From Amphiscolops sp. MND2022 (lineage: Eukaryota), in contig OZ076413.1 in NCBI GenBank assembly GCA_964187785.1, forward strand, positions 42,036,001 to 42,100,000: a stretch of 64,000 nt of DNA, written 5' to 3'. This document shows, piece after piece, positions 23,527-51,153 of this stretch (its first letter is position 1; the number at the start of each line of letters is the position of its first letter). The position numbers were made by a program, and so were the translations under genes. A model generated the notes under the pieces. That model saw only the letters and a list, made by a program, of their open reading frames with translations, made no database searches and was not told where the DNA came from.

Positions 23527-26500
23527 ATGGATCCAAGCAATTTCAAAGTTTGCGAAAATTGCACGATAAAAGTAACAGAACTTCACATCTGCACCCATTG
23601 CAAGAAATCTTTTTGCACAGAATGTGGCAACGAGCATTTGCAAGCCATTTTCGGGAAGCTAGACGATCTACAGGAAAAACTGCAGAAAAAACTTACAGAA
23701 TGGACACAGCTGAAGGTTACTTTTCAAACATCTTGCCAAGAAACGTTGATAAAAATTGCAGAGCTAGAAAAAGCGTTGCTGGAACTGGTCGGGAATCGAA
23801 CCTCGAACCTTCTGGATGACTGTGGGTTAGTGATGCAACGACGAATGTGGGACTATGAGAACCAAGTAGAGTTCATGCAAGAGGTTCAGAACAAACTTAA
23901 TAATGCCTCCAATGGGCTGGCGTACGATGAAATTTCATTGGGGGATGCTGATAATGCAATCCAGGAAGTGGAAAAACTGTTAAAGGAAGCAGAAAGATGG
24001 AAAAACGAATACCAAATGGATCTGAATTACGACCCAATGGATATACAGCGGGTCAACTGGTGCTTAATGACAACCGGCCACCTGTACACAAAACCCAGTG
24101 AAGAAGAAGAAAAGCTGAAAAACCGGAAGTTGAGGATAGAAAGAGCCCAACAACAGCTGGATGAGGGACTTAGCATGACACCTCTCAACAAGGACGAAAC
24201 AAAATTTGATCAGCATGACCAAGAATTCAGAAGAAATGTCACATCATCAGGTTTGAGATCTAACAATTTGAGCCCATGGTGGTCAGCTACAACAACCGGT
24301 TGGAGATCCAGTGCTTTGAACAGTAGTAATTTAAGACCCAAATACGATTCCATAAAGTCGAAAATTGTAAGACCCAGAAATTCAGTTTCTGCAGGAACAT
24401 TGGGGGATTTCTCGGAACTAACTACAAAAAGTTCTTCGGAAGGTTTGAGAAACTTGCAGATACAAGGAGGCTCCACTCCCGGAGGATCCATCGATAACTT
24501 TTTGAGGATAGGAACAGATGAAACTCTAGGTACTCTGAGTTTTCCTGGTAGAAAATATGAGCCAATTGAGTTGGGTAGTTTTTGGAGAAGCAAGTACTCA
24601 GAAGCTCAATCTCAGAGCGCTGAAAAAATGAATGAAATGTCACTGAAAGCTGAAAAAGATGAGGAGCTTCCTAGAAACAGAGTGAGTTCTTTTCTCAATC
24701 AGAATGAATGTCTTCTAACTCAGCCTTACTTAAAAGAAAGGTGGAGAGAAAGTGGTTGGTGGAAAAAGAAACCAACTCATGACTGTAATGAAAAACAACA
24801 AAGGACAGGGAAAAGTTACGAAACCCATGTGAGTTCCTCAAAAGAGGAAGAAAGAAGAACTTCATTTGATCCCAACACGCATGATCGGAGATACCCCAGT
24901 TCTTCAACTGGGACCCAAATAACAAAACCGACAACAAAGAAACCCAATGACAGTAACTCAGATTACTCTTCAGATTCTTCAATTAACTCAGAAGATTCCA
25001 AGCAGAAAGGTCAAAGTTCAAAGAAACGTTCAGACAAGGAAGCGAACGCGTCGCAAGTTCAGAAAAACAGAGTCAACGGAAATGGATTATCGTCCAAGGC
25101 AAGCTCTTGGATGGATTCAAGTGACTTCAGCAAGCATGATCGGAGAAAACTTGGAAAACAAAAAAATACATCAACAACACATGAAACAAAAACACAAAAA
25201 ACTACACAACCACAATCAAAAATAGGAAATGAGCTGAACATAGCAAATAACATTTCCAGTATGAAGGGTCAAAAAATGGGATATTCAAAAACCTTGGATG
25301 AAAAACAGAACAGTCTCTCTGGAACTTTTACCAGACATCCGGATAGACCGACTGAATTGCCCGAATGCAATACAATAGAACCAAAAATGAAGAATGCTCA
25401 ATGTCAGATAACACAGCTCGGTAGAGGCAAAATACATTTCAGCAGCAAAAGATTTCGCCAGCCAGTTAACATCGCGTCAAACAGAAAAGAGGCACAGTGT
25501 CAAATATCCAGCTCTTGGAACCGGGTAGTCGATTTCACATACCAGAAGTTTCCCGATTCCTACCCAAGATACGAAAGCAGAGGAGTTTGTTCAAGCAGAG
25601 ATACTCAAACTCAATGCCCAAGCGAGAGTCTCAGTGACCTTTTGAGACCAGAAGGTCGCCTTATAGCATCTCAATTGCAGCAGTCATCATCTAGGGAAAC
25701 TTACGCCCCGCAACAGCCAAGATTTTCGGAAAATTATGACAGGATTCAAACTGGAGACACTGAAAACACAGATTCTTGGGAAAACAAGAATCCATGGGTG
25801 TCTGCTTTCAGAGCATCGTTGAGGAATGCAACGTCATTCATGTTACCGGAGAGACAAGATGGAAGGCCTAGCCATGGCGTCTTTCAAGGGATTCCGTGTA
25901 GACAAACAGTTTCTGGAAGAAACAGAATCAATGAAAGGTCGGAAAATGATAGCAATAATAGAACCACATCTAAGAGAAGACATAGTATGAAAAAAACTCA
26001 ACAAACTCAAACAGAAGAAGTGCCTGTAAGGAATTCAGCACAGAGTCAAAATTCAACGAAGCATAAAGAGAAAGAGTTGAATATTCGTGGTGTTGAGTTG
26101 GCACATGGAACTCACAGCCTTCGTTATTCGGAAAGTCAAAATACATGCAATATACATAGCCGAAACCGCGAGAACAGCACCAATTTGGACAACTTTCAAA
26201 ACGAGAAAGTGGATGAACCGAGTAGACGGCAACGAAGAAATGATTCATCAATTCATCGAGGAACACGTACCGTTTTTGCTCCAAGTACAAGCGGAATGAT
26301 TGCAACACAACCTGTCAGAAGTGAAGGAAATGAAACAGCATTTAAATCAGAGAGAGGAAACAATTCTTGTGAAGATCGGCACATTAAAACAAGAGAAAGA
26401 CTTGGGACTTCAAGCAGCATTGGAAGCAGAATGAAAAGCTCCAGTATCACACCGACCCAGGACATAGGTGGGGACAATTGGTTGAGACATATTGCAACGG

Positions 26501-29500
26501 ATGAAGCTAAACTCAGCAAAAAAGATAGTCAACACGATAAAATAGATCAAGAGAGAGTCTCAAACGGTATCCAAAAACCTCAAACTAAAGCACTTGAAAC
26601 TGAAGATGTCTCACAGTTAGATAAAAATATTAATATTGCAGACGCTTTCTTGGAATTTGGACATGTTCCAAAAGGTGAAAAGCCTATTGATGCAAAGGAA
26701 ACAGGAGATCGTAATTTTATTGACTCCATTACAACAGTGAATGAACGACAACCGGAACTCGAGAACATAAAATCAGACCAAATAACAGAGAATCTTGACT
26801 ATATGAAACAGCCGATTTCCAAAAAAGACCCCAGAGTTTCACAAGAACTTGAAGCCCATTATGAACGGAACAAGGGAGATCAAGAAGGCGCGGATCAAAA
26901 AAATGAAGACATCTCCTACAGAACCCAATCGAGTGGTAGTGCTTTTAGTACCAGCAAAAGTGATCCGTCTGAAACTCCGAGTACTAGCGACGATTTCAGC
27001 TACCGCGGAAGTTTCAGAGGCTTAGAAGCTGAGGACCTCAGTGATCAAATAGAGGAAAGCAGTGACAACTCAGTTCGCAATCGAAGTTTCCAAGGCAAAG
27101 GAATTGACAGAGCAAATGACGGTTCTCGGTTACAAGAAACCAAAAACCTGGCAGTAGCAGTAGAACACGAAAAAATAATATCTGCGGAATCCGAAATTAT
27201 GAAAACAAATATAGAAGAACAGGTCGAAGATGAAACTGATGCCAGTATATCACCAGAACAAATTTCATCGAAGTTGCTGCAAGGCGTCTGTTCACCTGGA
27301 AACAAGACTTGTGATAACGAAACAACTCCGAATTTTGATAGCTCTCAGATTATTTCGATGGCAAGAAGCACCAAAGTCCTGTCAAATGATGAGCTATCGT
27401 GCACAAGCTGGGATAAAATTAGTGATTTGGAAAGGAGTGATTCATTAGAAAATGGCTCCCCAAATGATTCAAATGAGCGATCATCGAGCCCGCAAAAGAG
27501 TGATTCACCAGAGGAGAGACATGAGCATCTTTGTAGGAAAGATACATCTGATAATTTCGAAAAAACACAGACGACAGAAAATCATCAAAATCAAGAAGAA
27601 GAAGAAGAAGAAGAAGAAGAAGAAGAAGAAGAAGATGAACAAAATCAAGAAGAATGTGATCAAGAAGAAGAAGAAAATGAACAAAATAAAGAAGAATGTG
27701 ATCAAGAAGAAGAAGAAGAAGAAGAAAATGAACAAAATAAAGAAGAATGTGATCAAGAAGAAGAAGAAGAAGAAGAAGAAGAAAATGAACAAAATCAAGA
27801 AGAATGTGATCAAGAAGAAGAAGAAGAAGAAGAAGATGAACAAAATCAAGAAGAATGTGATCAAGAAGAAGAAGAAGAAGAAGAAAATGAACAAAATAAA
27901 GAAGAATGTGATCAAGAAGAAGAAGAAGAAGAAGAAAATGAACAAAATAAAGAAGAATGTGATCAAGAAGAAGAAGAAGAAGAAGAAGAAGAAGAAGAAG
28001 AAGAAAATGAACAAAATCAAGAAGAATGTGATCAAGAAGAAGAAGAAGAAGAAGAAGAAGAAGAAGAAGAAGAAGAAGAAGAAGCAGAAGAAGATTCAGA
28101 GACTTCAGGTGAATCATTTGAAAGAAAGACGCGAGATATTCTACACAGCAACAATGATCATGAAAAACATTCGGATGTCTGCAATTTGCAAGATCTAAGT
28201 GAACAAAAAAATAGCCAAACAACCCCAAGTGAAACTGACAACGTAACAGAACGAGAAAATAGGAGTAGTTCTTCTAATAGTTGTTATGTCGACCTAGACA
28301 ACTCAGACTTCAATTCGAACCAGCATGGGGATTCAGATGAAATGGATAAAGAAAATAATGGGCAATCAGATGTCAGTCCAGAAATAACAGGAGCATCGGG
28401 TTTGGAAACCAATGATCCAGAGCCTAATGATTTAACTGAAAGAGTCGAAGAGCCAGACATTCTCAACAATGGCATGTATTTATCACAATCGGCTACAAAA
28501 CCGGATGAATTCAGGGAAAAACAGCAAAAGCACGAAGAAATTCAAAGCTTGTCATCAAGTCAACCTGAATCGTATCCAACCAATACTTCTGAAACAGCGA
28601 ATGATGCAGCTGAAACGTCAACTGATTCGACAACAACTCATCCAATCGAAATAACCCAGAATTCTACGGGAACTTTAAACCACGACGTTGAAAATAATCA
28701 TGATGCAACTTCTGGTAATCAATTATTTGTAAATGTTGAGCATGAAAATATATCGAACAGAAAGGATCCGATTGAAGCACCGGGACTAGAAGCAGATCAA
28801 GTCACGTCCGAAGTTGTATCTAGGGATCTAGGCATTGAAACAGAAATGAAGGCTAAAAGCAACCAATCTCAATCACCAGAAAAAAGTCTTGACGGTGAAT
28901 TAAGAAGCACAGAATGTGAAACTGTTTCTATCGAAAATACCATCGACAAACAATACCATGACATTACAAATTCACGATCGAACGAATCAGACGCGAAAGA
29001 ATTGAGTAGAACTAGCTGTGAAGAAAGCGAGGAGACAGAAGAAAAAGAAAACAGTAGCAGCACCCACAACAGTAGTTATGTCGATGTAGGACAACACTCG
29101 GAGGATTTCAGTCCAATACAAAGTGTGGATTCTGACGAGTTCGACAGAACCCACGAACATACTTCACAGTTGCAACCAAAGGAAGAGGAGTCAGATCCAA
29201 ACGAAGACCTCACGGCATCCAAAAACGCCAATGAAATCTTTGACCATTCAAATAACTGCTTAGGTACAGAAGGTATAAAAGGATCTGACTCTGATCTCAA
29301 GGGTTTTAGCAACCTTGAAAAATTCCGACAAGATGAAAACAACTCGACAAACAAAAAACACGTGCCCGGACATTCTCAAGAATCATTTGGATGTACTGAA
29401 ATCATTTTGACTGAGACAGTACCAGAGCCTCAAAGTGAAAATATGAACATAGAGTTCACAGAAACCTTGAAAGAAGATGAAGACAGCAACAAACTGAATG

Positions 29501-30342
29501 ATGTAATGATAGATAGACCAGATGTGGGAAGTTTTCAGACCAGAAAAATGGTCAAATCTAACGATACAGAAGAAAACTTGGAAAAGGCGAATGAAGAAAA
29601 AGCGCAATACACTCAATGTGTATTATTAGACACCAAGTCATCGAATTATGAGATACAGAATCAGGAAACTAAATTTGGAGAAACAAACGTATCAACGACG
29701 AAGGAAGTCTCTGGAACTATTTCCCTTGAAAAACATGATCGGACAGAAACAAGCGTACCAGAGAACCAGCATGACGTTAAAATCGGAAACAATGATGCAA
29801 AAACGATCAGCGAAAATGGGAGCATTCTTAACGATGTTAATGAAGATACAAAAGTTCACCTTTTTACACTAGATTTGAAATCCAACCACCAATCTGAAAC
29901 GATAAGACCAAGTTCTGCAGAAAGCCGGGAACAAGACGACGAAAGCAGCGATCATGGCAGCAGTTATGTTGACATAGGCAACTCGGATTCGAGTCCGACG
30001 CAAAGTGGTGGATCAAGTGGATCTTCTAAAGAGCATGCAAAGGTATCGGACTTGAACCCGGAGGAAACCGAAGCCGAGACCCGCCATTCGGAGTCAGAAG
30101 AAAATCCGAAGTTGAGAGACGCTTCGGGTTGTACAGAAGGTCTCTTGAACACAACAACTAAATATCAAATTAAAGACGAATCGGATCAATTGAAGGACAT
30201 CAACGAGCATTCAAAACGCCGTACTGGTCAAAAACAATCGGATCATCTACAACAAAAAACGGAGCGAGCTGATTGTAACATTACGCTAGCCACCAACAAC
30301 TCAGAGCAGGAGCGAGATTCAACTTCGAGCGCCATGCTCTAG
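23527..30342 (+). CDS. Large B-box-like zinc finger / coiled-coil protein (TRIM-like N-terminus) with ~2000-aa acidic low-complexity tail
   Basis: Uninterrupted ~2270-codon ORF (first ATG 23527; frame open from 23398). N-terminal CxxC-x9-CxxC-x4-CxxC-x3-H (CENCTIKVTELHICTHCKKSFCTECGNEH) followed by a heptad-rich coiled coil; the rest is S/E/N/D/T/K-rich. Upstream exons are possible. Confidence 0.85.
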   Translation: MDPSNFKVCENCTIKVTELHICTHCKKSFCTECGNEHLQAIFGKLDDLQEKLQKKLTEWTQLKVTFQTSCQETLIKIAELEKALLELVGNRTSNLLDDCGLVMQRRMWDYENQVEFMQEVQNKLNNASNGLAYDEISLGDADNAIQEVEKLLKEAERWKNEYQMDLNYDPMDIQRVNWCLMTTGHLYTKPSEEEEKLKNRKLRIERAQQQLDEGLSMTPLNKDETKFDQHDQEFRRNVTSSGLRSNNLSPWWSATTTGWRSSALNSSNLRPKYDSIKSKIVRPRNSVSAGTLGDFSELTTKSSSEGLRNLQIQGGSTPGGSIDNFLRIGTDETLGTLSFPGRKYEPIELGSFWRSKYSEAQSQSAEKMNEMSLKAEKDEELPRNRVSSFLNQNECLLTQPYLKERWRESGWWKKKPTHDCNEKQQRTGKSYETHVSSSKEEERRTSFDPNTHDRRYPSSSTGTQITKPTTKKPNDSNSDYSSDSSINSEDSKQKGQSSKKRSDKEANASQVQKNRVNGNGLSSKASSWMDSSDFSKHDRRKLGKQKNTSTTHETKTQKTTQPQSKIGNELNIANNISSMKGQKMGYSKTLDEKQNSLSGTFTRHPDRPTELPECNTIEPKMKNAQCQITQLGRGKIHFSSKRFRQPVNIASNRKEAQCQISSSWNRVVDFTYQKFPDSYPRYESRGVCSSRDTQTQCPSESLSDLLRPEGRLIASQLQQSSSRETYAPQQPRFSENYDRIQTGDTENTDSWENKNPWVSAFRASLRNATSFMLPERQDGRPSHGVFQGIPCRQTVSGRNRINERSENDSNNRTTSKRRHSMKKTQQTQTEEVPVRNSAQSQNSTKHKEKELNIRGVELAHGTHSLRYSESQNTCNIHSRNRENSTNLDNFQNEKVDEPSRRQRRNDSSIHRGTRTVFAPSTSGMIATQPVRSEGNETAFKSERGNNSCEDRHIKTRERLGTSSSIGSRMKSSSITPTQDIGGDNWLRHIATDEAKLSKKDSQHDKIDQERVSNGIQKPQTKALETEDVSQLDKNINIADAFLEFGHVPKGEKPIDAKETGDRNFIDSITTVNERQPELENIKSDQITENLDYMKQPISKKDPRVSQELEAHYERNKGDQEGADQKNEDISYRTQSSGSAFSTSKSDPSETPSTSDDFSYRGSFRGLEAEDLSDQIEESSDNSVRNRSFQGKGIDRANDGSRLQETKNLAVAVEHEKIISAESEIMKTNIEEQVEDETDASISPEQISSKLLQGVCSPGNKTCDNETTPNFDSSQIISMARSTKVLSNDELSCTSWDKISDLERSDSLENGSPNDSNERSSSPQKSDSPEERHEHLCRKDTSDNFEKTQTTENHQNQEEEEEEEEEEEEEDEQNQEECDQEEEENEQNKEECDQEEEEEEENEQNKEECDQEEEEEEEEENEQNQEECDQEEEEEEEDEQNQEECDQEEEEEEENEQNKEECDQEEEEEEENEQNKEECDQEEEEEEEEEEEEENEQNQEECDQEEEEEEEEEEEEEEEEAEEDSETSGESFERKTRDILHSNNDHEKHSDVCNLQDLSEQKNSQTTPSETDNVTERENRSSSSNSCYVDLDNSDFNSNQHGDSDEMDKENNGQSDVSPEITGASGLETNDPEPNDLTERVEEPDILNNGMYLSQSATKPDEFREKQQKHEEIQSLSSSQPESYPTNTSETANDAAETSTDSTTTHPIEITQNSTGTLNHDVENNHDATSGNQLFVNVEHENISNRKDPIEAPGLEADQVTSEVVSRDLGIETEMKAKSNQSQSPEKSLDGELRSTECETVSIENTIDKQYHDITNSRSNESDAKELSRTSCEESEETEEKENSSSTHNSSYVDVGQHSEDFSPIQSVDSDEFDRTHEHTSQLQPKEEESDPNEDLTASKNANEIFDHSNNCLGTEGIKGSDSDLKGFSNLEKFRQDENNSTNKKHVPGHSQESFGCTEIILTETVPEPQSENMNIEFTETLKEDEDSNKLNDVMIDRPDVGSFQTRKMVKSNDTEENLEKANEEKAQYTQCVLLDTKSSNYEIQNQETKFGETNVSTTKEVSGTISLEKHDRTETSVPENQHDVKIGNNDAKTISENGSILNDVNEDTKVHLFTLDLKSNHQSETIRPSSAESREQDDESSDHGSSYVDIGNSDSSPTQSGGSSGSSKEHAKVSDLNPEETEAETRHSESEENPKLRDASGCTEGLLNTTTKYQIKDESDQLKDINEHSKRRTGQKQSDHLQQKTERADCNITLATNNSEQERDSTSSAML
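27595..28092 (+). repeat. Coding compound repeat: (GAA)n tracts interleaved with eight [DN]EQN[QK]EECDQ units
   Basis: Directly visible: eight GAAGAATGTGATCAA cores separated by variable pure GAA runs. Confidence 0.95.
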
Positions 30343-31519: not shown

Positions 31520-32001
31520 TATGAAGGGATACGGATTCCAACCCTTGAACCGAAAGTTAAGGGACACGTCCCTTTCGAAGGGTCCAATCGAAATGAGTCC
31601 CGCCGCCATCGGCACTTTTTAGTCCCTGAGGATAGTTCCCATCGGCAGGTCGTTTACTTGTACCGGCGAAGTACTCATTGAAATTGATTACCCGCTCCCG
31701 AGCTAAAATCTTCAAGTCTCATGGAGGGAGTTACATTGGAAACATCATACAGAAAAACCCCTGTACAATAGCATCATATGTCTTGTGAAGGGAGATGACA
31801 AAATTTTTGTTCGAGGGTTGGAGAGAAATCCCAAAAGCTCATTTCTAACAGAAAAAGTTTAGTGTTCGGGGGAAAGTTTCGTCCTTTCACGTAACTCTTT
31901 GCGCAAAGTCTCTCCGTCTCGCAAGGTAGTAAGGAAAAGTTACTTGCGGTTGAAACTGTATTGCAGAAACTATCCGGAAATTTCAAGGTGCAGATTTCCA
32001 C
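31520..32001 (-). pseudogene. Unknown retroelement-associated ORF family Y, copy A (frameshifted)
   Basis: Translated pieces (ETERLC, LYDVSNV, LKILARERVINFNEYFAGT) match copies at 33529-33985 and 39690-40020. Confidence 0.55.
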
Positions 32002-33528: not shown

Positions 33529-33985
33529 TTATCCTTCCAATATGATGTGCGTTGATTTTTTCATATCTATTTCCAGCTTCCGAGCCAAAAATTTCATGGT
33601 TGTTGGAGTAGTTACGTAGGAAACGTCATCCAGAGAATCTGAGACAAAACCACTAAAAGTTTTCGGAAGGGAGCTCTGGGGACCAATTCCAACTTTCTTC
33701 ACTCTTCGATGGCAGCTAACATTTGGCAAGAGCCCGACAAAACGTACAATAATTTGATATTGTAAGAAATTTTTGCTACTAGGGTTGGAGAGAAAACCCA
33801 AGGGCTCAACTCTTAACAGAAAGGCTTGAATTTTTGGTGAGTAAGCTTCGTTCTATCAGCGTGCGATTCCCTTCACAAAGTCTCTCCGTGCTCAAGTGTT
33901 TCGACTCACTGGAACTATGGAAAATCACTGGCAGTTAATAGTATAATTTCGAAATTATCCAGATAATACAATTGCAGACTTCCAC
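33529..33985 (-). pseudogene. Unknown ORF family Y, copy B
   Basis: LYVLSGSCQMLAAIEE..VKKVGIGPQSSLPKTFSGFVSDSLDDVSYV..MKFLARK, matching copy C with synonymous third-position changes. Confidence 0.6.
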
Positions 33986-34925
33986 GGTACGTAATTATTC
34001 AATCGAACTAGCAGCAAATGAAGGTTGTATAAAACAGTCCAACAAAACTGTGCCCAAGCCGATTACAACTTTCTACGGTTGACAAGTCCCGGACTTGAAA
34101 TTCAATTCGTCTGCTCTCACTAAGCAGTCTCAGTAAATTCGGTTTTGAGTAGGTCTCTTGCCTTCTCGCGCCTCAACGTACTCGTCACGTCGTTCTACTT
34201 CTTGTGTCGAGCGGTTCCTTCAGTTATTTTCTCCTTTTTGTTTATTTGATCATAGCCCGGAAATTTGTTGTACCAATGTCACTCTTTTATTTGCATGCTT
34301 TTAACTTCATGTAGCTTCATTCCTTTTTTGGCATGGCAGCGCCCTAGTTATTTTTCAAGCAGACATACTTCGCCGCCAACGACAAACAATTCAACAATGG
34401 TCGTACGAAGTTCACATTTCAATAATAATTCAATTCACTCGAGATATTTTTAATTTTACTTCCACGGTACGTAATTATTCAATCAAACTAGCAGCAAATG
34501 AAGGTTGTATATAACAGTCCATTAAAACTGTGCCCAAGCCGATTACAATTTTCTACGGTTGCCAAGTCCCGGACTTGAAATTCAATTCATCTGCTCTCAC
34601 TAAGCAGTCTAAGTAAATTCGGTTTTGAGTAGGTCTCTTGCCTTCTCGCGGCTCAACTTACTCGTCGCGTCGTTCTACTTCTAGTGTCGGGCGGTTCCCT
34701 TAGTTATTTTTCTCCTATTAGTCTATTTGCTCATAGCCAGCAAATTTGTCATTAGGCGTCGGTCTCACATTTGCATGCTTTCACATTCATGTTTATCCAT
34801 TCCTTTCATGGCATGGTGAACGCCACTGGTTATGCTTCGTCTAAACAGTCCTTGCCGCCAACGACAAATAGTTCACATCTTGTCCGAAGTCCACATTTCA
34901 ACAATTCAAGTCACCCGAGAAATTC
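33978..34925. repeat. Tandem duplication with 480-bp period
   Basis: ACTTCCACGGTACGTAATTATTCAATC begins at 33978 and 34458; the first ~240 bp are near-identical and the remainder clearly more diverged. Confidence 0.9.
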
Positions 34926-35838
34926 TTAACGTCGAAGAAATTGCTCAATGACCTTCAACTACATGGTTTACATGTTCTCTACGTGTAAGGGGTACCTTTT
35001 CGCCATACTAAGTGCGTTGCATTGCAAATCCTTTCGCCTGACTGAAATGCATAAATTACCACGCAAAGAGCGCTGATTCACATGTTTTATGGTAAGTTTC
35101 TCTGTATGTTCAGGGGTCGCATCTAAAATGACCTTGAGGCCCATCAGTGACCTTGAAGTTATTTGTAATCATCCAATGTTACTACATGCCAAGTTATATC
35201 GTCCTCGGGCCTTAAACAAACATTTCTCCGCGCGTTATGTATCCTTCATGTATATTAGTTAGGGTTACCATCTTAGGCAAGTTTCGTGATCCTCGGGTCG
35301 TCCGTTGGCTATTTAAATAACGTTCGGGGTTCATTTACATAGGGTCCGTACTCCTCCTACCCGCGTCGTAGGGTTCCGAAAATATACGCAAACGGCTTGA
35401 GATCATGTGGGCTATCAATTCCATATATATTACGACTTATTCCGTGCTTGGCCGACGAGTTGGTAAGGGGGTCGACCTAGGTCTTTTCCGGTGCTAATAG
35501 CCCGGGACTGAGGGGAGGTACGAGGTCGGGTACTTCGAGTCGAAAGTTGAGTTAACACCTCTAGTTTATGCATGTCACATTTCAGCTCGATCGGACTAGC
35601 CCTTCCCAAAAATGGGGGGTGGTGTATTTTGGGGATGCCTCTCCTTTCCGCATAAAATGAAAACTTAGTAAAATTCGCTCGAAGCGGTCAATTCTAACGT
35701 AGCGAATTCGAACAATTTCGTTGTTGACATTAGTTCTACCTTGCTCAAACAATCAAATTTACTCTTTCCACATTCTGTTTGCCATCCGCAGTTCTATTCT
35801 CGCACGCAATTGCATTGCAATGTAATAATTAATCTAAT

Positions 35839-36709
35839 ATGGATCTTGAAAGTTACAACGAACGGGTAAATTATCTCCGATCCAGTGCCCTGCCTTCCCA
35901 TATGGATGCCCGTCAACGGTACCGCTTTAAGCAAGCCATGAAAAGGTACTCTTCAGATCACTGTCTCCGCCTCCTCTTCAATTCCCGCCGAGTTCATGAT
36001 GAGGGGAAGGTGGATCAGGAGTTGAAACTCTTTCATGAAGAACTTGGCCATTGCAACCGGGATGATTTTATCGGTGCTGTTCGTGCGCGCTACTCCATCG
36101 TTGGCCTCGAAGGACGTTGCCGTAATCTGGTCACAACATGTGTGGCGCGTCTGGACGACCTCATTGGGTGTCGACTCGACGGGCCTATGATTCCTTACCC
36201 GGAGGGACGGAGGAAGGCCTTGTGCTGTGCAAGAAGGTGGGTATCCCTTGGGTGCGCCATTTCCCACCTTGGACCACCCTTGTCTCGACGTAACCAAGTT
36301 CCGTCCCGACACGCTGGACACCCAGTCCATTCACAATTGCGTCTGCTCGGCGTTGAGTGCCGTTCTGTATGGGACGCCCGCCCATGCAAATATTTTGGAG
36401 GATGTTGTTCGCCGGGAGCGTACTGGACCAGCCGGGCAACTGACGGTCCGCTTCGATGGAGACCTCCCGGAGGGCGACGTTGATGACCTCTTCTCGGTCA
36501 CAGCGACGGACACCAAGTTGCTGTCTCGTCGGCTTGGTGTCAACGTCTACAAGTATTATAATGGGTGCGGCGATAGTCCACCTGGCTGGATTACATATTC
36601 GGGCAACCATCGGGGTCACGCTGACGGAGGGATTTATTTAGCTGTGCGATGGCTCCGGTCTCGCAGATTGTTCCATTGTGTGGCCGTCACGGGACTAAAA
36701 CCTTTGTGA
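35839..36709 (+). pseudogene. Integrase-type zinc-binding (H2C2/GIN-like) domain + OTU-like cysteine protease, copy 1 (frameshifted)
   Basis: YNERVNYL...FHEELGHCNRD...RYSIVGL...LVTTC (integrase Zn-binding domain pattern) then HNCVCSALSAVLYGTPAH (OTU Cys loop, Cys codon 36338), LLSRRLGVNVYKY, GWITY, GIYL...LFHCVAV (His loop, His codon 36674). Confidence 0.65.
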
Positions 36710-37086
36710 ATTGTTCTTGTCTTCCAGCTGACTTCTCGTGGGGCAATTGCAGCTTTGGTAAGTTAAAATATCATTTTCACATTCCCCTTTCTAGACTCTT
36801 ATTCTCTTGAATAAGAAAGATAATTTGTTAGTGTTGTCGTCGTATGAAGTTAGTTGGGCAGTGCACTCTATTACTATAGGTAATGACATTAATAAACAGT
36901 AATAAAACATCCTTCCATTACTCGTTCTCGTCACTAATGCTTTCCTCCCTTTGCCTTTCCTTCGATTTAATGAAAAACTCCGGATCGTCGGGGTTGAGCC
37001 CCTCTGCGTTCTTCCAACCCCGCTGATCGTGCTCCGCTGGGGCCGATATCCTTTGACTGCGTCTTCCCGTCGCGGTGTTCTTTGAT

Positions 37087-37431
37087 TTAATTTCGTTTTC
37101 CCGGTGCTGCGTTTTTCATATTGGGTATGACCTTATCGGCCACCATCGTTCTCCCAATAGTCCTCTTCCGGTTTGTGACTTTTTCGGGATTGGATGACGA
37201 CTGACTTGGCACCTCGATGTCATGGGATCTCTGAGGGGGCGCGGCCTGGGTTACCTCGGCCCGTGTGGAGCGCAGGACTCCATCGCTGCTCACTTGTCCA
37301 TAGGGGGTGCGACCGTCCCATTCCCCCATTGTGCAGTTCTCCCTGCTCGTACCCTCCCCCGGAAGTTCTCGGGATAACGTTTCGAATAAAGGTCTTTCGG
37401 TGCGTTTCTCGTCAATTCCCACCGGGGTCAT
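37087..37431 (-). pseudogene. Unknown ORF family X, copy 2
   Basis: RPLFETL...PG...NC.M...GRTP.GQ conserved with 32230-32704. Confidence 0.55.
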
Positions 37432-38329
37432 TGGATTTCGTTTTCGAAAGTAAGGTTACTATTTAGCTTAAGGCAATTTAACGCGCAAGTTTTCCTCAGT
37501 AAAATCGCGAGAGTTAATCTAGTTAACAAATTAGTATCTATATGTACTGTTCGGCCTTGATTGCTCGAGAGATTTTTCCACCGGGGGCAACCGAGTCTCC
37601 TAATGAGGCACAGTTCAGTTGACCTAATAAATATTAACCCTCCACGAAAGTTATGGGGGTGATCAACATTAAGGCTAATTACATAATTACAGGTATGAAA
37701 GTAAATAAACGGGTCGGGTCAGAAGGGTCATCTTGAATAAATACGCTCCCATAAACTGCTTCATTAAGGTATTCGTAATAATATTTATGATGCTTTTCGG
37801 GTCTACGGCAACCGGGTATAGTTCAAATGAATGGGAGTGAAACGCCATGGTTCCAACTTCGTTTCTATTGTTGATAAACAAGTTAAAGCTTTTGATAAAA
37901 CTCGTTTGAAATTTTGACGCATTTGAGTGTAACTTTGACGGTATTCAATTTTACAGGTGGGGGGGGGTTGGGGAAGAGTTGAGGAAGCCACCTAAATGAT
38001 AATGCGTCACCCAAACGTATCTCATCTGAGTTCATCTCACGCATCTGCAACTCTCCTCATCATGTGTATAATGAAATATAAAAGAAGTTTAAACAAGGTT
38101 TTAGGATATAAGTAGGCATCCAGAATACTCTTCAGGTACATTTATAGTGTTTAGGATACCTCCCCCTTGCCGTATCTCACTTTTTTTTCACCCGCTTTGG
38201 CATTATAGATTGATACCGAAAGTTCTTATTCATTTTCTCATCAGAGTTATCCAAAGGGGCGGCGACCTCACTAGGTCCTTCTTCCTTCAGTTGGGGTTGG
38301 CTTGGGTGTGAAACTGATCCCTTAGTCTT

Positions 38330-39121
38330 TCATTTCGTACGAGTCAGAGGATCTAGAATTTCCGGGCTCGTCTGCTGAACTTTCTTGAAAGTGTCCCGAA
38401 GCATTTTCCAGTATCTTCCCGTTTTACAGAGGCAGGTCGTTAACATCGTCTGCACGAATCGTCGAGGGCCCATGTGTATTATCACTGCTGCTGGCACCAG
38501 TAGGATAATTGCGAAGAGTGTGAGCAGGACAGTGCCCACTACCGGGTGAGCCACTTCCTTCCAGTGAAAGGGCCCGTGACGCTTCAGGACTGATTCTGCA
38601 AAGGGGCGGGAGATCTTTTTTAACTCCTCGTCGTCAATTTCGTTTTCTGGTAACTCGATCACGTTCATTTTCAGGCCTTTTAACGGATCTTCATGCGCCA
38701 ACGCCCTGTATTCCTTTTGGAACTTCCAATCCGGATTCTGTCCTTGAAATTCCTGAAAAAGTTTGAACATTGACGCCAACACGGTATTCTGCTTGATGGT
38801 TATGTGCAGACCGGCTTCATGGTGGCACTTCCTGGGGTCCGGATTTAGCACTAGGCTTCCATCAGGGGTCTCAATACTCCCGTTGCAGGCTGGTCGGAGG
38901 AGGCAACTTTTGCACCCGCGAATCCTTTCTCCTTCGAGGGCTCGTCCTCCAGTGTAGTAGTAAAGTTGGTAGATAGTACTCCGGGAGGTCAGCAAATAGG
39001 TGGAATCGCCAAGGTATTCTGCTACTGGCTCTTCCGACAGCGCCACCACTTCTTGAGGGCATAACTTCAGTGCAGTATTCTGGAGGTTAAACAAGACGGG
39101 AAGGTCCCAAGTCGGCTCCAT
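38330..39121 (-). pseudogene. env: env-like fusion glycoprotein family 2, C-terminal part (Cys-rich ectodomain, TM, tail); 5' end cut by repeat A
   Basis: 263-aa open frame with GCKSCLLRPACNG and KCHHEAGLHITI, TM VVGTVLLTLFAIILLVPAAVIIHM; aligns with 59430-61175 and with the GCQICINTLECG region of env family 1. Confidence 0.7.
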
Positions 39122-39127
39122 ATATAA

Positions 39128-39620
39128 GGCTCAAAAATATTCAAGGAACAACTATTGGAAAGATTTGGAATTTTTTTTTCAAAAAAAGTATTTTTTTTAA
39201 AAAAAGTCGCACAATGCCGAAAAACTTAGAAAAGAGGCCATTTAGGCTTATGAAACGTTTTTAGAAACCGAAAACTTCGAAAAAATGCAAGGGGGTACCC
39301 TTTGATAGAATTCGAAAATTTTCGAAAAAAAGTCGCATAGTGCCGAAAAAAACCCAAAGGGGGACCTTTTGGTCTCGCCTCTACTTTTGGAAGCATCAAA
39401 AACTTGTGGTTTAGAGCGAGAATCGAACCCACGACCTCCTGCTTCTCAGAAAATTAGTTGTGAAAAACTAAGCTTCTCAGAAAACAAAGGAACAAAAGAT
39501 TGTAAAAAAGTGGACCACTCAGAGTGAGATTGCCAACTGAAAAAAAATTAAGAAAAAACTACTCACTGTAAGAGACGGGCTTTTTACCTTAAGGGAAAAG
39601 GCGCCGACTAAAAACAGGCT
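39128..39620 (-). repeat. Interspersed repeat family A, reverse copy inserted into the retroelement nest
   Basis: ATATAAGGCTCAAAAA start, AAAAAAGTCGCA(C/T)AGTGCCG subunits, ACTGTAAGAGACGGGCTTTTTACCTTAAGGGAAAAGGCGCCGACTAAAAA end; contains a B-box-like GGTTCGATTC on the - strand near 39420. Confidence 0.8.
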
Positions 39621-39689
39621 TGCCAAACACGGGGACTTACTGCTCCGTGACATCGCTACCGGCCTTAGGCATAATCTGTGTCTCGACGT

Positions 39690-40020
39690 TCCTTGGTAGT
39701 GGGTGGTCAGTTGCTGTTCGGTGGCTTCTGCATAACTATCCCTGTAGCGGCAAAGTGCTCATAGAAAATGATTCCGAGCTCCCGAACGGTAATCTTCATA
39801 TCTGTTAGAAATACGTACGAAACGTCATCCAGAGAATCCGGACAATAGCAACGAAGGTCTTGTAAAGGGAGCTGTGGCTATCAAGTCGGATTTTCTTCAC
39901 CCATTCCTCGATGGCGGCTACATTTTGGCCAGTCCCCGACATAACGTACGATAGTATGATACAGAGGCATCCCCTGGTGCCGGCAAAGTCGACTGTAATG
40001 GAGCAGAATTTGGAAGGGCC
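39690..40020 (-). pseudogene. Unknown ORF family Y, copy C
   Basis: SYVMSGTGQNVAAIEEWVKKIRLDSHSSLYKTFVAIV.DSLDDVSYVFLTDMKITVRELGIIFYEHFAATG. Confidence 0.6.
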
Positions 40021-41975
40021 GGCTTCGGTGCGTTTCCTATGTGCTGATGGATCAGAGTCGGCGCCCGCTCAAATTTCGAAGAACCAAATAATGGTAAATT
40101 TTTATTGGTTTTCCGTGTCAAAATATACCCGAAGTGATACGCAAAAAACTCGAGAATCATTTTCCCTGACATAAGATCTTAAAAATTGTTTTGAATGAAC
40201 TAACCTCGTTCAAAAGGAAACTGTTCCAACACTTGACCTAAAGGAGATGACCCGCCCGATCGGCACCGTTTCCATTCCCCGAGGGTAGTTACTTTACTGT
40301 GGCAATAAAAACACTGCACTATCTGAATTGATCTGAATTACAGTTTTAATTCCAAACAGCTTTTTCCCTTAAGTACTGGTGAGTCGAATGACGTGAGCTA
40401 ATGGAGAGATGTTGCATAAGCACTACACGATAGAGCCTCACTTACTCACCATAAACAGTTTTTTTGCGGGAGTTGAGCATATAGTAATTCTACTTGACAC
40501 TACTGCTGAAGTTACATAATCGAAATAAAGCCACGATGCTCGAACAGTAGCGAGTCTATCCAAAGACTGATTGCTGGTTGGGCACCGTGGGCAGGATTAC
40601 CTTCCAGTCTCTTCCATTCTCCGATCATGCCTGTTGAGGTCTCTGGAATTAGCAAGATTTCTCAAGGTACAATTTAAAAACTTTGATCAGTGGCCTTTGA
40701 CCAGTTTCTTCTTCCGGTTCAAAGTCATCAAGCCTCGCATCCCATTTACCTTCCTAAAAATTGCCATGTGAAGGTAACCGTGTAAGTTGGTACAGGTCAG
40801 CTCGACGAACTCTCCAAAGGAACCGAAAAAAACTTCCATGGAACATTCGCGTTCAATCAATCAGGTTTTTTCATTGTAGCGCATCAAGACCTCGAAATGA
40901 TAGTTTGCAACACCAGCCTGGGCTTCCAGTGTTTTTTGTAGAACTTGAACAGAATTCCCTCATTGAGCCTGCGCGTCTGTCTTTTCACTGTTGTGTCTTC
41001 TTTTATTTTGCAAAGTTGCATCCTTCCTTTTTCGCTTTCTATCTCGCTGCAATTTCTGAGTGTGCCGTGACTTCTTCAAGCCTACATGGCATTTGTGAAC
41101 TGGCAGACGCTCAACACTATCAGTTTGTTCTCATTGAAAAACTAATGGAAGCAAACGGAAAAAAATTCACTGTTGAAACACCTGGAGCACACAACCCAGC
41201 CAGACAGTTCTTTCCAATAAAAATATGCCTGACGTAGCTTTGCGGCATGATTGCTTTCCGCAAGCGTCCCATTGAGCTCACCTATATTGGTTTATCATGA
41301 GTATATCAAAAAATGTTTCCTCAAAAATCTCTTGTTCATAGCAATTATTAATCGAAAAACAAAATTGCACAAAACAAATGGAAACAAGCTTTTTTGTCTA
41401 CTCGGCAGCTTCGCATTCCAAGGTCCTATTTTTTGAAGCAAAAAAAGCTCAAAGGCACCTCCGACAAATACTAACTAATCTCTAAAGTCGAAATTGAGAG
41501 TAATACATTGAGAGATCAAACGGTACCGACTCTATTCAAAGACTGAATGCTGGTTGAAACTCGGTAAAAAGGGTTCTTCTAGGCTCCTCTTTCCGTCTCT
41601 ACTCTCCGATTAGGCACGTTGAGGTCACTCGATTTGGCAAGGTCATACCCAAAGTAAAACATGATCATTGGCGATGAAACAGTTGGTTCTACCAGTCCAA
41701 GTTCAACATAAAAGAGACCTTAGCAGCAATATCTCGAACGAACCACAATGACGGACGTTGTCGACTTCTAGCACGAACATACTTAGAAAAGAGGCAATAT
41801 ACATACTTATCTACGACATGGAACCTCTTTTTCCTATACAACATGTGAAACTGCACGAACTTTCTTCCAGGCTTTTTTTGTGTGTGAGTTCAACATTTAA
41901 AAATCTTATTGAATTTTTCTTAGGAATTACAATTCATTTATAATGAATGAGAAGCGTTGATTACGAAAGCACTAA

Positions 41976-42307
41976 AATATCCTCTTTTCAGACATATTGT
42001 AGTTTTGGAATTATGGATTCTATTTGTATCTCGCGGACGAGCGATCTCTTCTGATGCATGGATCACAATCAACACTTTGAATGTTTCACTCTATTGAAAG
42101 GCGACTATTAAATATTCGAAAAAATTTTCTTAGGTTCTAAATATTATTCTCTTCGGATGATTGTAGTTCAAGTGAACAATTAGCTCACAGTTTGAAAGTG
42201 GATGATTATTTAAATGTCAAATACTTTTGAAGTCTAAATGTCATCAATTCGGAACTTGGAATTTGTCCTCAACTATGTTCTTGTTTAGGTCATGGGATAC
42301 TAAGTCA
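41976..42307 (-). mobile_element. LTR copy 1 (diverged member of the 326-bp LTR family)
   Basis: GGACGAGCGATCTCTTCTGATGCATGGATCACAATCAAC and downstream blocks shared with the LTRs at 46962, 58256 and 58745; termini degraded. Confidence 0.8.
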
Positions 42308-42919
42308 TTTTCCACTCAGAAAAATTCGGAGATGGTTCGGATATTTTCCGCATTGGCTTTGGATTGGTCATGAAAACCACCAAAGATTCCTCGTAAGCCA
42401 CAAGAGTCGGAGTTGCGCATGGCGACTCGGCTCCAAAAAGACCAACGGCTGCAAGGGCAGCTATACCTACTGCGGCCCCACGCCTTCGCCGGGTTGCGTC
42501 CGGCTTCAGTGGCGAAAGGAACATTGATGTTTCGTTGCGGTTAACCAGTAGATCATTTTGAGTTTCAGCAATTTCATTTTCAAATTGCAAAAGCATCCAG
42601 TTGACATTAACACCTGATGAAATGGTGGCAAAAACACTCGAAAAATTCAACGGACAAAAGAGTGATGGGACTTGCTACAAGTGAGAAAGCCTGTGAAGCA
42701 TGGCTTCGATATCCGGTTTCATCGAGAAGGCATACTGAGGAAAAGCAATCGAAAATCGACTAAAATAAATTTCTCGGACAATATGATTGTGCTACGTTCA
42801 TATAATAAAATTCTTCTCTCGAGTAGAGCATTTGGAACCGTAGAAGTCGCAATGTTAGAATTCCAATCACGCTAAACGGAATAAGGGACAAAAAGCAGAA
42901 GTAGGAGAAAGGAATACAT
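42308..42919 (-). pseudogene. env: env family 1, N-terminal fragment of element E2 (signal peptide, RRRR furin site, fusion peptide), truncated at LTR1
   Basis: MYSFLLLLLFVP..WNSNIATSTVPNALLE..SEKFI; ATRRRR|GAAVGIAALAAVGLFG, matching 47693-49744. Confidence 0.8.
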
Positions 42920-43206
42920 CGTGTCGAAGAAAAGCAAGAAAGGAAAAAAAGGTCGCTGAGTCACGCCAGAAATCTTGATGACACAGAAATTTCCTGTTGA
43001 AAATGTCAATTCTGAGCAGGATGTATTCGAAAAGCGACGCCATGAAACTCTAAATGTCTAAGAGTCATAATGATGAAATTTAAACTAAGAGTTTGGTAAA
43101 GTAGGCGGGCGTTTGGTCAACAAAACTTTATCGGTCAAGGATGTTCAAACTGAACTTTGTACGAAAAGCAACGCTAATCTTGACTTCGAGCTTTTCAGTT
43201 ATCAAA

Positions 43207-43590
43207 ATGAAAACCAAAATTCTTGTCGCTTTTTGTGTGGTATTCGCTATGTATTCGTCATGCGAAAAAAACAGTGCCGTAGCCAAACGTTCTGGTGCTG
43301 TTCGAATGCCACAAAATATGAAGTCAACGAAAGAGTTGTCTGGAGTGCGCTTTTGCCTTCAATGTGTAAAAAAGAGAAACGTTTGGTGGAAGAAGAAAAC
43401 AATGCAGTCACCTACGTCACGTTGACTTTGTAATTGGAAGTTTTGTCTGTTGTGGCCTGTGCGGGCACTGGTACCAGGGACGTAATCGAAAAAACTGAAT
43501 CGACAGCGAAAAGACAAAGACTGTTAAAAAGACAAAACACCCCAACCTTGACTGAACATTTATCCAGCAGTTTAATGTCTAGCAATTAAG
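43207..43590 (+). pseudogene. Antisense small Cys-rich membrane protein (ORF U), E2 copy
   Basis: MKTKILVAFCVVFA signal-like start, FWCCSNATKYEVNERVV, VTYVTLTL; conserved with 50017-50395. Confidence 0.5.
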
Positions 43591-43720
43591 TGCATGGACT
43601 TTTGGGCAGACAGTTTTTGTGGGACCAAAAACGGTTTGCAGTTGCTTTTGAAAAAGGCAGGAAAATGAAAAAACTAACAGTGAAGCCGTGAAACGTTTGA
43701 AGAGAGAAAAAAGTTTTAAA

Positions 43721-44059
43721 TTAGAAGAGTAAAAAAATGATGAAGTAGCGAAAAGACATCCGAACAGGCAATAAGGAAATTAGAGTTAGGTACAATTGTT
43801 CATATTGGATTCCAGCATCAACGTGACAGTGTATGTAATCCTCTGCATAGTGAATTCCTGTGACAAAGTATTCATGACCGGTCTTGAAACAGGTCCATCG
43901 TAATTGAATAGGAGAATTTTGAGTTAAGAGACCCATTGCAGGAGAGACGAATGTTGAAAGAATGTTAACAGGTGACATCGAACTGGCAAGTGGAGAGGAT
44001 GTGAAAAGAATGACTACCTCAAATTGAGGTACGTAAACAAAAAATATAAATTTCATCAC
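43721..44059 (-). CDS. Unknown accessory ORF V, E2 copy (112 aa, open)
   Basis: STFVSPAMGLL...FKTGHEYFVTGIHYAEDY...QYEQL conserved with 50661-51054. Confidence 0.55.
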   Translation of the reverse strand: MMKFIFFVYVPQFEVVILFTSSPLASSMSPVNILSTFVSPAMGLLTQNSPIQLRWTCFKTGHEYFVTGIHYAEDYIHCHVDAGIQYEQLYLTLISLLPVRMSFRYFIIFLLF

Positions 44060-44159
44060 AAAAAGTCGTCAACTCCGAAAGTGACAAGTTAATGTCAGAG
44101 TCAAATCGAACGTTCGATGAAAAAATGGGAAAAAGACATCAAATATGGTATTAAAATGC

Positions 44160-45078
44160 ATGGGTAAATTTCGAAGGAAGTAAAACAGCATATTTAGAAA
44201 ACAAGGGAGCCTTGTTTATATCAAGAATGTGTGCGATTTATGAAGCAAAAAGAGTGGATTAAAACGGAACTGAGAATGGAGGAAAGAATAAAATGGGTAA
44301 AACGAAAGTCGCGATGTAATATCGATGAAACTGGAGCCTTATTAAGGAAAGGTAGCCAAGTATTGACAAATGCAGAAATGGAAGAAATATTTGGACCAGT
44401 GCATTACAAGGGAGGCAAGCTTATGCGAGACGTTCGTTTGTTACGAAAAAAACTTTAGTCAGAAAGGGTATGTTTTTTCGTCATTTTTGGAAGGGCTAGG
44501 AAGAGCGTGTCAGCAGTAATTATTAACGATAATAACTTGTGAGATTTGATGACATCGAGATGTTATGTAAGAATTTACGTACATGCTCGAGTGCGAGAAC
44601 AGCTTGTGGGCTTTCCATGAAGGATATCAATTGGAAAGAGCGTCACCAGTTACCGATCAGTACCGCAGGCAGAACTGCTCTCAATTGAACTTTCAGTATG
44701 TAAAGGCTCCCGATGCGGAGTGTATAAAGATGGTATGATTCCGTGTTAGCTGAAGCAGGTGGAAAGTGCTGGTTTTCAGCAATTTGGTTTCTACTAGTTG
44801 GCAAGAAAAGCGGTGATTAAACTTTAAGGAGAAGCTACTAATATTTATGTAATATTCGGTTTTAAACTGTGTCTTTGTGGAGAATAAAGAACATGAATGA
44901 TCTGAACAACTTGAGAAAAGGTATCGAGAAACGCAGAAAGGAGCCTGATTCTGAGGAAATTTGCCTCAGGGTATTGAAGTACGCCACAATTCCCCGAGAG
45001 ATAGACGCGGTGACAAATTCGAACCAAGCCGTTCGAGAGCCTTGGGTGTGTAGTCTACTGGCCTTATTAGTCTACTAG
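44160..45078 (+). pseudogene. Integrase-Zn-finger-like + OTU-like gene, copy 2 (3'-truncated)
   Basis: VLTNAEMEEIFGPVHY..SFLEGLGRAC, GGKCWFSAIWFLLVGKKSG (Cys codon 44767), YATIPREIDAV..EPWV; each block aligns with 51154-52334. Confidence 0.65.
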
Positions 45079-45303
45079 CCTTATTAGTCTACTGGCACGA
45101 CGAAGACAATCAAGGGTGGATTCGCTGTCCAGCAGCGGGGCGCTCACCGACGTCTACTGTTCGAGGGACGTTGTTACTGCACTGGACACACTCAAGAAAG
45201 TATAAGATGTTCCATTGTGAGTCAATAATAAAATGGCCAATAGGAGAGATAGTTTGCTATTTTTAATGCATGTAAAAATCGGTGTAATGAATTGATTTGG
45301 CTG

Positions 45304-46337
45304 TTAGGGCTGACAAGTCATAAGAAAGAGCTCATGAAACGGAGCCAGTGAAAAATACAAAAAATGCTCGAGCACGTTGTTCTTAGTAGTCAAAACACAC
45401 TGAAAATGATTACACTCATGAACTGTCATCTGAGGAATTATCTCAGGAAAAGGTTTACTCAGGAAAGCTACTTTCAATTGATTAGAATTCTGACCACGAA
45501 TTTGGTTATAAGCACATCTTTGGACTTGCTGCGTTTGATTATCCTGAAGGACTTTCAGTTGATTTGTAAGTTTTAGGTTGCGTTCTTCAAACTGTTTAGA
45601 CATTTCATCTAGTCGATTGTCCAGCGCCTCTTGACTAGTACTCAATTTAGTCAGGGCAGTAACAAATGTGTCTGTTACTGATAATGTGTCTGTAACTGAG
45701 AAGCCGATTTCACTAAATGCATCAATGACTGCATCATCTGTTTTAAAGAAAAAATGGATTGAAAAATGTTTAAATGCAAAAATACAAATACATAAATCGT
45801 CAACTGTAATATTTTCTAGTTGTCTGGTATAATTTTAGGAACTGTCGCCGAATTGGCTTTGAAAGGGCCCTTTGAGGTGATCTATTGATATCTGGAAGAC
45901 GTGCAGTATCTTGATTAAAGCGTGTCTGTTCCGCAGCACCATCAGCTGCTGCGCCGTTTATTGGTGCGGCCGCTGGAGGATTAGGTTCCGGATACGCTTT
46001 AAAAGCGTTTGTCTGTAAAATTACGAGAGAGTTTTCCGGATTATCTGTTTTTGGATCGAACTTAAGGTTTTCGAGATTCAAAACCGATAACTCTTGTAAT
46101 TGCGGGTTGCAAGAATGGTTTTTATGTGCTTCAAGTGACAAAGCTAAATCATTTCGCATTGCCAATGATGAAGTTTTAAAATAGCAAAAAGCGGCATCAC
46201 GCAGATTCAAATGTAAAAACTTGCCTGTTGATTAGGGCAGCGACAGCAATAATACTCTGGAGCAAGTGCTCAAATTCTCGAAATTTTTCTTTTCCGATTC
46301 CAGAACAAGGAGTAAGAGTGGGGTGAGGTTGAGCCAT
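45304..46337 (-). pseudogene. gag: gag-like capsid ORF (frameshifted)
   Basis: MAQ..SGIGKEKFREFEHLL..FLHLNLRDAAFCYF..LENLKFDPKTDNPE..AYPEP, Ala/Pro-rich linker, coiled-coil and N/Q-rich C-terminus with Cys/His remnants; lies 3' of an LTR on the same strand. Confidence 0.6.
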
Positions 46338-47287: not shown

Positions 47288-47298
47288 CTTCCTCCCTT
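47288..47298 (-). promoter_or_regulatory. Polypurine tract (PPT)
   Basis: AAGGGAGGAAG directly abuts the TGTCA start of the 3' LTR on the - strand. Confidence 0.8.
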
Positions 47299-51054: not shown

Positions 51055-51153
51055 GACAAAGTCATGAACTTTAAATATGTCAACAAAATATGAACGAAAA
51101 GCGATCGTTCGAAAAGGAGAAGAGAAAAAACATCAATCAGGGCTGGAGGTGAC

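Follow-up and report, generated by a model that had tools for sequence, protein, structure and literature searches.

An antisense zinc-finger and OTU-like protease gene carried by gypsy and BEL/Pao retroelements of the acoel Amphiscolops

Relatives already described

The closest described match to the gene reported here is found among transposases. Ginger1 transposases, in the available portions of PMC2836005, have YPYY, H2C2, DDE, GPY/F and OTU segments, and one to four introns. The retroelement gene is like them in its YPYY-like N-terminal region (judged by eye), its H2C2 finger, its C-terminal OTU domain and its GT-AG introns; it differs, as far as that account goes, in having neither DDE core nor GPY/F, in the 62–66 aa that separate finger from OTU cysteine in families B and C, in having no inverted repeats, and in being carried antisense by LTR retroelements.

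Other systems have one or another of these features. Plant Retand/Tat LTR retrotransposons carry a conserved antisense gene between pol and the 3′ LTR that derives from a transposase domain (TRP28); the acoel genes belong instead to animal elements of two viral families, have a protease domain and introns and, in family A, lie inside the LTR, and the accessible text of the Retand/Tat paper mentions no OTU, protease or intron (PMC11963269). Accessory enzymes common to diverse retroelement types are found among bdelloid LTR retrotransposons, too, but the ORF3 enzymes there are a GDSL esterase and a DEDDy nuclease, and ‘OTU’ has 0 occurrences in the part of that paper at hand (PMC5408684). OTU domains ride on mobile DNA in Helitrons/Helentrons and in Polinton (adintovirus) PolB, fused, in what is available of these sources, to the replication proteins of DNA elements, whereas here the domain belongs to a separate gene of retroelements (PMC6431247; bioRxiv 10.1101/697771). 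The family A profile matches OTU proteins of the Helitron/Polinton type, and a pre-OTU helix is common to both. In fold, the best matches are the cellular OTUD1/OTUD3 and the nairovirus vOTU, which have their Cys and His loops in the same order; identity is 7–26%, and the acoel retroelement protein is fused to an integrase N-terminal domain.

Our literature search—supplements, Repbase/Dfam and subscription papers, where an annotation may exist, lay outside its scope—turned up no OTU gene in an LTR retroelement, in agreement with an earlier note on this DNA that knew of no description of the arrangement. Apparently it is; its parts, mobile-element OTUs and antisense accessory ORFs, are known.

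The genes in the window

The window is the whole stretch of DNA analyzed, 64,000 nucleotides of Amphiscolops sp. MND2022 (contig OZ076413.1, positions 42,036,001 to 42,100,000). The earlier note, made from the sequence alone, described three + strand genes in it, each with a zinc finger followed by a Cys loop, and the motifs it quoted are all present in the sequence, on the + strand. Each gene joins an integrase-type N-terminal/zinc-finger domain to an OTU-fold cysteine protease domain without a DDE core: there is no rve match, nor room for such a core in genes of the window type, as the note maintained. It was right, too, that the genes run antisense to the frames of their elements, which proved true across the elements fetched. 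The putative catalytic Cys codons are at 36338 (copy 1), 44767 (copy 2) and 51795 (copy 3), and the putative catalytic His codons at 36674, 45213 and 52296, respectively. The His loop is real, but it is not confined, as was thought, to two complete copies; copy 2 has one at 45213 also.

The idea that these are three diverged copies of one gene has to be abandoned. By tblastn, copies 2 and 3 match each other and copy 1 matches neither. They form two families, A (copy 1) and B (copies 2 and 3), homologous at the profile level only: hhalign aligns A with B over the full length, with Cys and His at corresponding positions (probability 96%, E 2e-9). Decay by frameshift alone, the first reading of copies 2 and 3, is likewise rejected, since conserved GT-AG introns explain most of their frame changes. 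Two gene extents have grown: copy 2 runs to about 45254 and copy 3, by way of a fifth exon, to 52483, beyond the ends given before. The features are as follows.

33761–36781, − strand: family A 3′ LTR of about 2.7 kb, enlarged by an internal duplication of 480 bp
35839–36709, + strand: copy 1, family A zinc-finger and OTU-like gene, intronless; frame broken at about 36219–36260
37087–37455, − strand: what remains of ORF4 of family A, a sense frame of about 185 aa that lies between env and 3′ LTR
38330–39743, − strand: family A env-like ORF remnants, split by an insertion at about 39095–39610
39710–40068, − strand: degraded piece of an OTU-like gene from another family A subfamily
41971–59080, − strand: element 2 (family B), pol deleted, element 3 nested inside; 3′ LTR 41971–42300, env remnant 42322–43232, copy 2, gag remnant 45574–46351, 5′ LTR 58740–59080
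44160–45254, + strand: copy 2 of the family B gene, decayed; matches to exons at 44294–44507, 44580–44811, 44887–45048 and 45081–45242
46957–58581, − strand: element 3 (family B), with LTRs of 334 bp that are 97.6% identical and a target duplication of 5 bp
51196–51516, + strand: copy 3 exon 1, N-terminal domain, two zinc His at 51407 and 51422; start uncertain
51517–51574, + strand: copy 3 intron 1, GT-AG, phase 2
51575–51840, + strand: copy 3 exon 2, zinc CxxC at 51588/51597, putative catalytic Cys at 51795
51841–51904, + strand: copy 3 intron 2, GT-AG, phase 1
51905–52071, + strand: copy 3 exon 3
52072–52136, + strand: copy 3 intron 3, GT-AG, phase 0
52137–52330, + strand: copy 3 exon 4, putative catalytic His at 52296 and Glu at 52302
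52331–52398, + strand: copy 3 intron 4, GT-AG, phase 2
52399–52483, + strand: copy 3 exon 5, a short tail, basic and NLS-like in several other copies

Copy 1 occupies the U3-side first kilobase of its 3′ LTR, beyond which comes the complement of a polypurine tract, and is 85% identical to an uninterrupted ORF elsewhere in the genome (locus L002). Its element is 5′-truncated: ORF4 and env remnants are kept, and no gag or pol was found after the env remnants. Copy 2 is heavily decayed, and reaches past a 17-bp tandem repeat to its His loop. In copy 3 all eight splice sites are retained and exons 2–5 are open, the one clear lesion being a T/G homopolymer in exon 1 near 51337–51357. Its carrier, element 3, has broken pol (about 53000–57966) and env (about 47700–49700) frames and no gag match.

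The region around the copies is a nest of insertions, and more decayed fragments of family A LTRs, OTU genes and env lie at 31560–31718, 33532–33852, 39710–40068, 60097–61238 and 61735–61967. Elsewhere in the window, a single open frame of 2314 aa (23398–30342), with an N-terminal Cys/His cluster, a coiled coil, long acidic repeats and weak Pfam matches only, is probably a host TRIM-like exon. There is also a leucine-rich-repeat ORF at 18953–19594, and a remnant of a hAT transposase dimerization domain at 62704–63267.

Family A: an intronless ORF inside the LTR

Across the 1.07 Gb of genome searched, the OTU half of family A has at least 117 matches (161 candidates, 150 scored). Among 44 matches entered there are 16 same-strand pairs spaced 11.7–14.7 kb apart, and all seven of the pairs fetched proved to be the two LTRs (2.7–3.5 kb; 95–99.9% identical) of one element each. 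Frames for gag, pol, an env-like protein and ORF4 lie between these LTRs, on the strand opposite to the OTU-like gene, and 5-bp target duplications are present in 3/3 elements checked. The gene is an intronless antisense ORF of 283–291 aa within both LTRs, spanning about 34–72 to 891–941 in the LTR, which in element orientation is the U3 end.

Retroviruses have accessory genes in this position, too: HIV nef and MMTV sag are LTR-encoded, and their ORFs, being located in U3, occur twice per provirus, once at each end. The family A gene is like them in its U3 placement, but it is antisense, and unrelated in sequence. Because this enzyme-like gene is part of the LTR, it can also be dispersed by solo LTRs.

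ORF4 (window 37087–37455; L040:5520-6065) is a conserved sense frame of about 185–215 aa between env and 3′ LTR, for which no Pfam match was found. At G000:C1:40652293-40676987, three copies of the family A gene lie 12.1 kb apart, which fits a tandem element sharing its middle LTR.

Family B: introns in a retroelement

Exon 2 of family B has at least 151 genomic matches (287 candidates, 150 scored) of 34–100% identity, and 134 of the 150 matches listed are stop-free. The gene is sited between pol and env of env-bearing gypsy elements and is split by four conserved GT-AG introns. It is opposite to pol/env at 44 of 46 loci, neither being in view at the other two, and LTR pairs of 331–393 bp were found for 5/8 and 3/3 of fetched elements.

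Splice sites were counted at the anchorable ones among 50 loci looked at. Intron 1 has AG at 43/46 and GT, by a looser search, at 37/46; intron 2 has GT at 27/29 and AG at 28/29; intron 3 has both at 34/34; and intron 4 has GT at 43/46. The background frequencies are 6.3% for GT and 7.9% for AG. The introns are fixed in position and phase, and their lengths, 55–174 nt, fall into all three mod-3 classes. Because GT-AG ends are conserved at fixed positions and phases, the frame changes are taken to be introns, and spliceosomal ones as predicted from genomic DNA. A protein search with exon 2 for longer proteins returned six, of which the one looked at, P0079, looks like unspliced read-through; no spliced product was seen there.

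Antisense placement explains how introns survive reverse transcription: they, and the gene's own 3′ end, can be kept without damage to the genomic RNA. Family B would thus be a clear case of spliceosomal introns that outlive retrotransposition.

One 11.9-kb family B element (L078/L079), whose LTRs are identical and whose gag, pol and env frames are long, retains only exon 4 of the antisense gene, so the gene is dispensable in cis. At its end, family B pol also has a segment resembling a macro domain (Pfam Macro E ∼0.02; L030:1-894, L024:3316-3834, window ∼53000–53400), possibly a second counter-defense enzyme, for ADP-ribose removal, beside the OTU gene, and it has a dUTPase-like segment before RT.

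Family C: the same design without env

A Pfam OTU scan of the genome gave nine matches, and these led to a third family, C, outside the window. Its ORF, 295 aa and intronless, has the same two-domain layout, lies tail-to-tail with the integrase of BEL/Pao elements, and starts about 50 nt from the LTR. There are 105 genomic matches; the gene is opposite to the BEL integrase at 20/20 loci (7 by script, 13 by hand), and LTR pairs were found in 4/4 elements and in a further one, L178. This last is complete, with 312-bp LTRs 99.4% identical, a 5-bp duplication, one 1741-aa gag-pol and the antisense ORF, and it has no env. Its gag-pol combines DUF1759, Peptidase_A17, rve and DUF5641, and belongs with Belpaoviridae (BEL/Pao). 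The family C carrier is therefore of a different superfamily from those of A and B, which by their LTRs, target duplication and PR-RT-RH-IN order with RVT_1 and rve are Metaviridae (Ty3/gypsy); the RTs of the latter two are about 25–32% (about 28%) identical to each other. The earlier note had remarked that absence from other copies of the retroelement would tell against its reading. Instead, each family has more than 100 genomic matches, and recent LTR pairs.

The env-like ORFs of the A and B carriers are homologous (L040:6757-9003 versus L074:2612-4993: 24% over 747 aa, E 4e-31). They are assigned on motifs to the class I fusion type, having a signal peptide, furin site, fusion peptide and TM; no PDB sequence matches them.

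That env-bearing gypsy elements keep the gene is true of A and B, but since env-less BEL/Pao elements carry it as well, dependence on env is rejected. This bears on one possible use of the protein, as an innate-immune antagonist in an infectious, env-mediated cycle, like the OTUs of nairoviruses and arteriviruses. Related env ORFs in two carriers and viral OTUs among the fold matches speak for such a use; we nevertheless consider it very unlikely, for family C has the gene and no env, the cellular OTUD1/OTUD3 match equally well or better, and an N-terminal domain of DNA- or integrase-binding type points to the nucleus. The analogy with ISG15-based immunity drawn in the earlier note is weak for a gene not tied to env, and ill-suited to an invertebrate host: ISG15 is, to our knowledge, specific to vertebrates. 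The env-less carrier argues, rather, for a role inside the cell.

The OTU fold and the N-terminal domain

Assignment to the OTU fold rests on profiles, folds and family C. Pfam by itself gives no OTU match on the window pieces or on family A and B proteins, and Integrase_H2C2 is below threshold on single window pieces (E 5e-4). Three family C proteins pass the Pfam OTU cut-off of 23.3 bits (27.2–27.9 bits), other C members scoring below it, and family C can be aligned with A (E 6e-6) and with B (E 7e-7). Matched against 1.84 billion proteins, the family A profile found 58, two of them Pfam-OTU proteins, from anchovy and sea urchin; the profile link to these (E 6e-7 and 1e-4, whole library) aligns their Cys loop with the first Cys of the family A N-C-x-C motif. 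In PDB sequence searches the family A profile found nothing meaningful, and family C found only OTUD1/OTUD3, at E 0.28; the ESM Atlas yielded no usable match.

The predicted structure of the family A protein has an overall pLDDT of 69, with about 90 for residues 1–100 and about 45–85 for the OTU part. Its N-terminus resembles that of Ty3 integrase (Z 9.3; rmsd 4.0, 92 aa) and of foamy virus integrase (Z 8.6), its C-terminal part OTUD3 (Z 9.1; rmsd 4.1, 120 aa), DUBA and OTUD1 (Z 8.6 each). Family C yields a poorer model (Z 7.5 and 6.7), its His strand drawn as a helix. Both models have the integrase N-terminal fold, and HHCC finger residues are present. With the family A model, OTU proteins fill the Foldseek list, headed by OTUD1 at E 0.002; with either model, none reaches 0.001. 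The hits foreseen in the earlier note have thus appeared in part: OTU dominates by fold, above that E value, and Integrase_H2C2 remains sub-threshold by Pfam on the window pieces. Taken together, the profile links, fold matches and Pfam scores bear out its OTU-like domain, and the Ty3 match and HHCC residues its integrase-like N-terminus. We hold it very likely that the encoded domain has the OTU fold.

Cys and His are conserved and in register across the aligned A, B and C sequences; the third residue is Glu in B (putatively), Asp in C, and absent in A. In family B, Cys is invariant in 21/21 exon-2 rows and His-x-Glu in 18/18 exon-4 rows; in family C, His-x-Asp is invariant in 8/8 rows and Cys in 7/8. 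In family A the Cys loop is missing its canonical Asp, and no acidic residue follows His; in subfamily A1, to which copy 1 belongs, the final Cys of CxxC is absent as well. The proteins of B and C are probably active proteases, and that of A may well be. A non-catalytic or self-limiting regulator instead—a dominant-negative binder of ubiquitin or integrase, or an antisense RNA that curbs copy number—seems to us quite unlikely. The degenerate Cys loop and missing third residue of family A would suit it, as would antisense transcription that overlaps the genomic RNA, and so would P0073 of the acoel Convolutriloba macropyga, the only named close homologue, a full-length ORF whose finger exceeds the Pfam H2C2 cut-off and whose catalytic Cys and His are both lost. 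Against it are the near-invariant residues of B and C, and selection at the codon level, which implies a protein.

Three unnamed homologues find matches of just 26–40% in this genome, so other species probably carry the family. Scans of metagenome and viral contigs found no relative.

Selection, and the origin of the gene

Seven unsaturated family A pairs have dN/dS values of 0.07–0.17; of the others, one near-saturated pair has 0.32 and one very close pair 0.61, close pairs giving higher values (0.35, 0.61). Copy 1 compared with L002 has 0.21–0.31, and copy 3 compared with its nearest relative, 0.15. Family B is saturated at synonymous sites in 26/28 pairs, with pN 0.15–0.39, and between subfamilies of family C pN is 0.30–0.42 against pS 0.79–0.86. 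We have little doubt that this is a real gene under purifying selection. Selection was surmised in the earlier note, as a thing of the past; that restriction falls away, as many intact recent copies exist.

The sole named match to family C is a crab protein, P0098, which shares the N-terminal motif and also has a GPY-like segment (by eye) and a Pfam OTU domain. Both termini of family C align with it (hhalign 96%, E 1e-9), and it looks like a Ginger1 transposase model. That the closest named relative outside acoels is Ginger1-like supports an origin by loss of the DDE core, and descent from a Ginger1-like transposase, the source proposed in the earlier note, is probable. On this view the core would have been lost, and the OTU domain and the N-terminal integrase domain, with its YPYY-like/NED region and HHCC finger, retained; the gene would then stand alone as an accessory gene of LTR retroelements. 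Derivation of the finger from the carrier's own integrase found no support: there is no significant match in the three pols compared, and no detectably greater closeness to the integrases of the carriers. A search of this genome for a Ginger1 donor yielded nothing beyond weak matches to the OTU part.

Could the genes be functionless passengers, remnants of Ginger1 insertions? Ginger1 transposases do share the two domains and have 1–4 introns (PMC2836005, available portions). Yet synonymous sites are saturated while the protein is conserved, and position and orientation are fixed in each family. In families A and C the genes abut LTR ends: the stop of family A is 34–72 nt away from one, and the start of family C is about 50 nt from its LTR. 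No inverted repeat of 40 nt or more surrounds the window copies; Ginger1 is marked by TIRs of 40–270 bp and a 4-bp target duplication. A nested Ginger insertion is rejected, the window copies not being flanked by inverted repeats of that kind, which the earlier note had named as contrary evidence, and passenger status, largely refuted already, is improbable in the extreme.

In a tree of 31 OTU rows, A, B and C each form one clade, and support for their joint origin is 86/83. A joint origin is neither shown nor rejected by this, and a single capture followed by exchange, or several captures, are both compatible with it.

Two further OTU frames were noted. One, of 2244 aa (L141 / L155:1217-7948), has a canonical OTU domain, is Helitron-like by appearance, and represents another mobile source of OTUs; the other (L139, contig C1676) is on a short contig of composition unlike the host, and is possibly from a symbiont or contaminant.

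What the protein might do

Our preferred reading, which we favor by a modest degree, is that the gene encodes an antisense accessory deubiquitinase that shields its element, inside the cell, from ubiquitin-dependent host control. The gene would be transcribed antisense, probably from the 3′ LTR side. Its integrase-type domain would bring the protein to element DNA, to chromatin or to integrase complexes, and there the OTU domain would take off ubiquitin, or a ubiquitin-like modifier, whose presence would otherwise lead to breakdown of element proteins or silencing of the provirus. These steps carry different weights. That the substrate is ubiquitin or a ubiquitin-like protein is rather likely; counter-defense as against some other use is, for us, evenly balanced.

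The other use to be reckoned with is in the mechanics of transposition, the OTU enzyme being active and serving, for example, to adjust the ubiquitin signaling of DNA repair where the element integrates. Bao et al. propose a role of this kind for the OTU/Ulp1 domains of Ginger1 (PMC2836005, in the part available). The partner domain is that of an integrase N-terminus, and the gene occurs both with and without env, as such a role would allow. LTR retroelements mostly integrate with no OTU accessory gene, however, and separate, antisense expression would uncouple the protein from particle-borne integrase. We regard this role as unlikely.

The deubiquitinase reading may be taken one step further. 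The gene may be a mobile counter-defense cassette: a DNA- or integrase-targeted deubiquitinase, taken from a Ginger1 transposase, that has spread among two gypsy lineages and BEL/Pao elements of acoel-like, retroelement-rich hosts, and erases a ubiquitin-based mark for the silencing or degradation of elements. We offer this tentatively, and would not be surprised to find it wrong. If true, the cassette would be an enzymatic anti-silencing gene common to several families of animal retrotransposons.

Few animal retrotransposons have been documented to encode counter-defense proteins of their own. In the present case, selection has maintained one enzyme-like gene in three lineages that differ in superfamily, env, gene position and introns, and its retention by all three points to one strong pressure from the host, exerted by way of ubiquitin. 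The candidate enzyme is small and directly assayable, and its substrates would show how an animal restricts its LTR elements.
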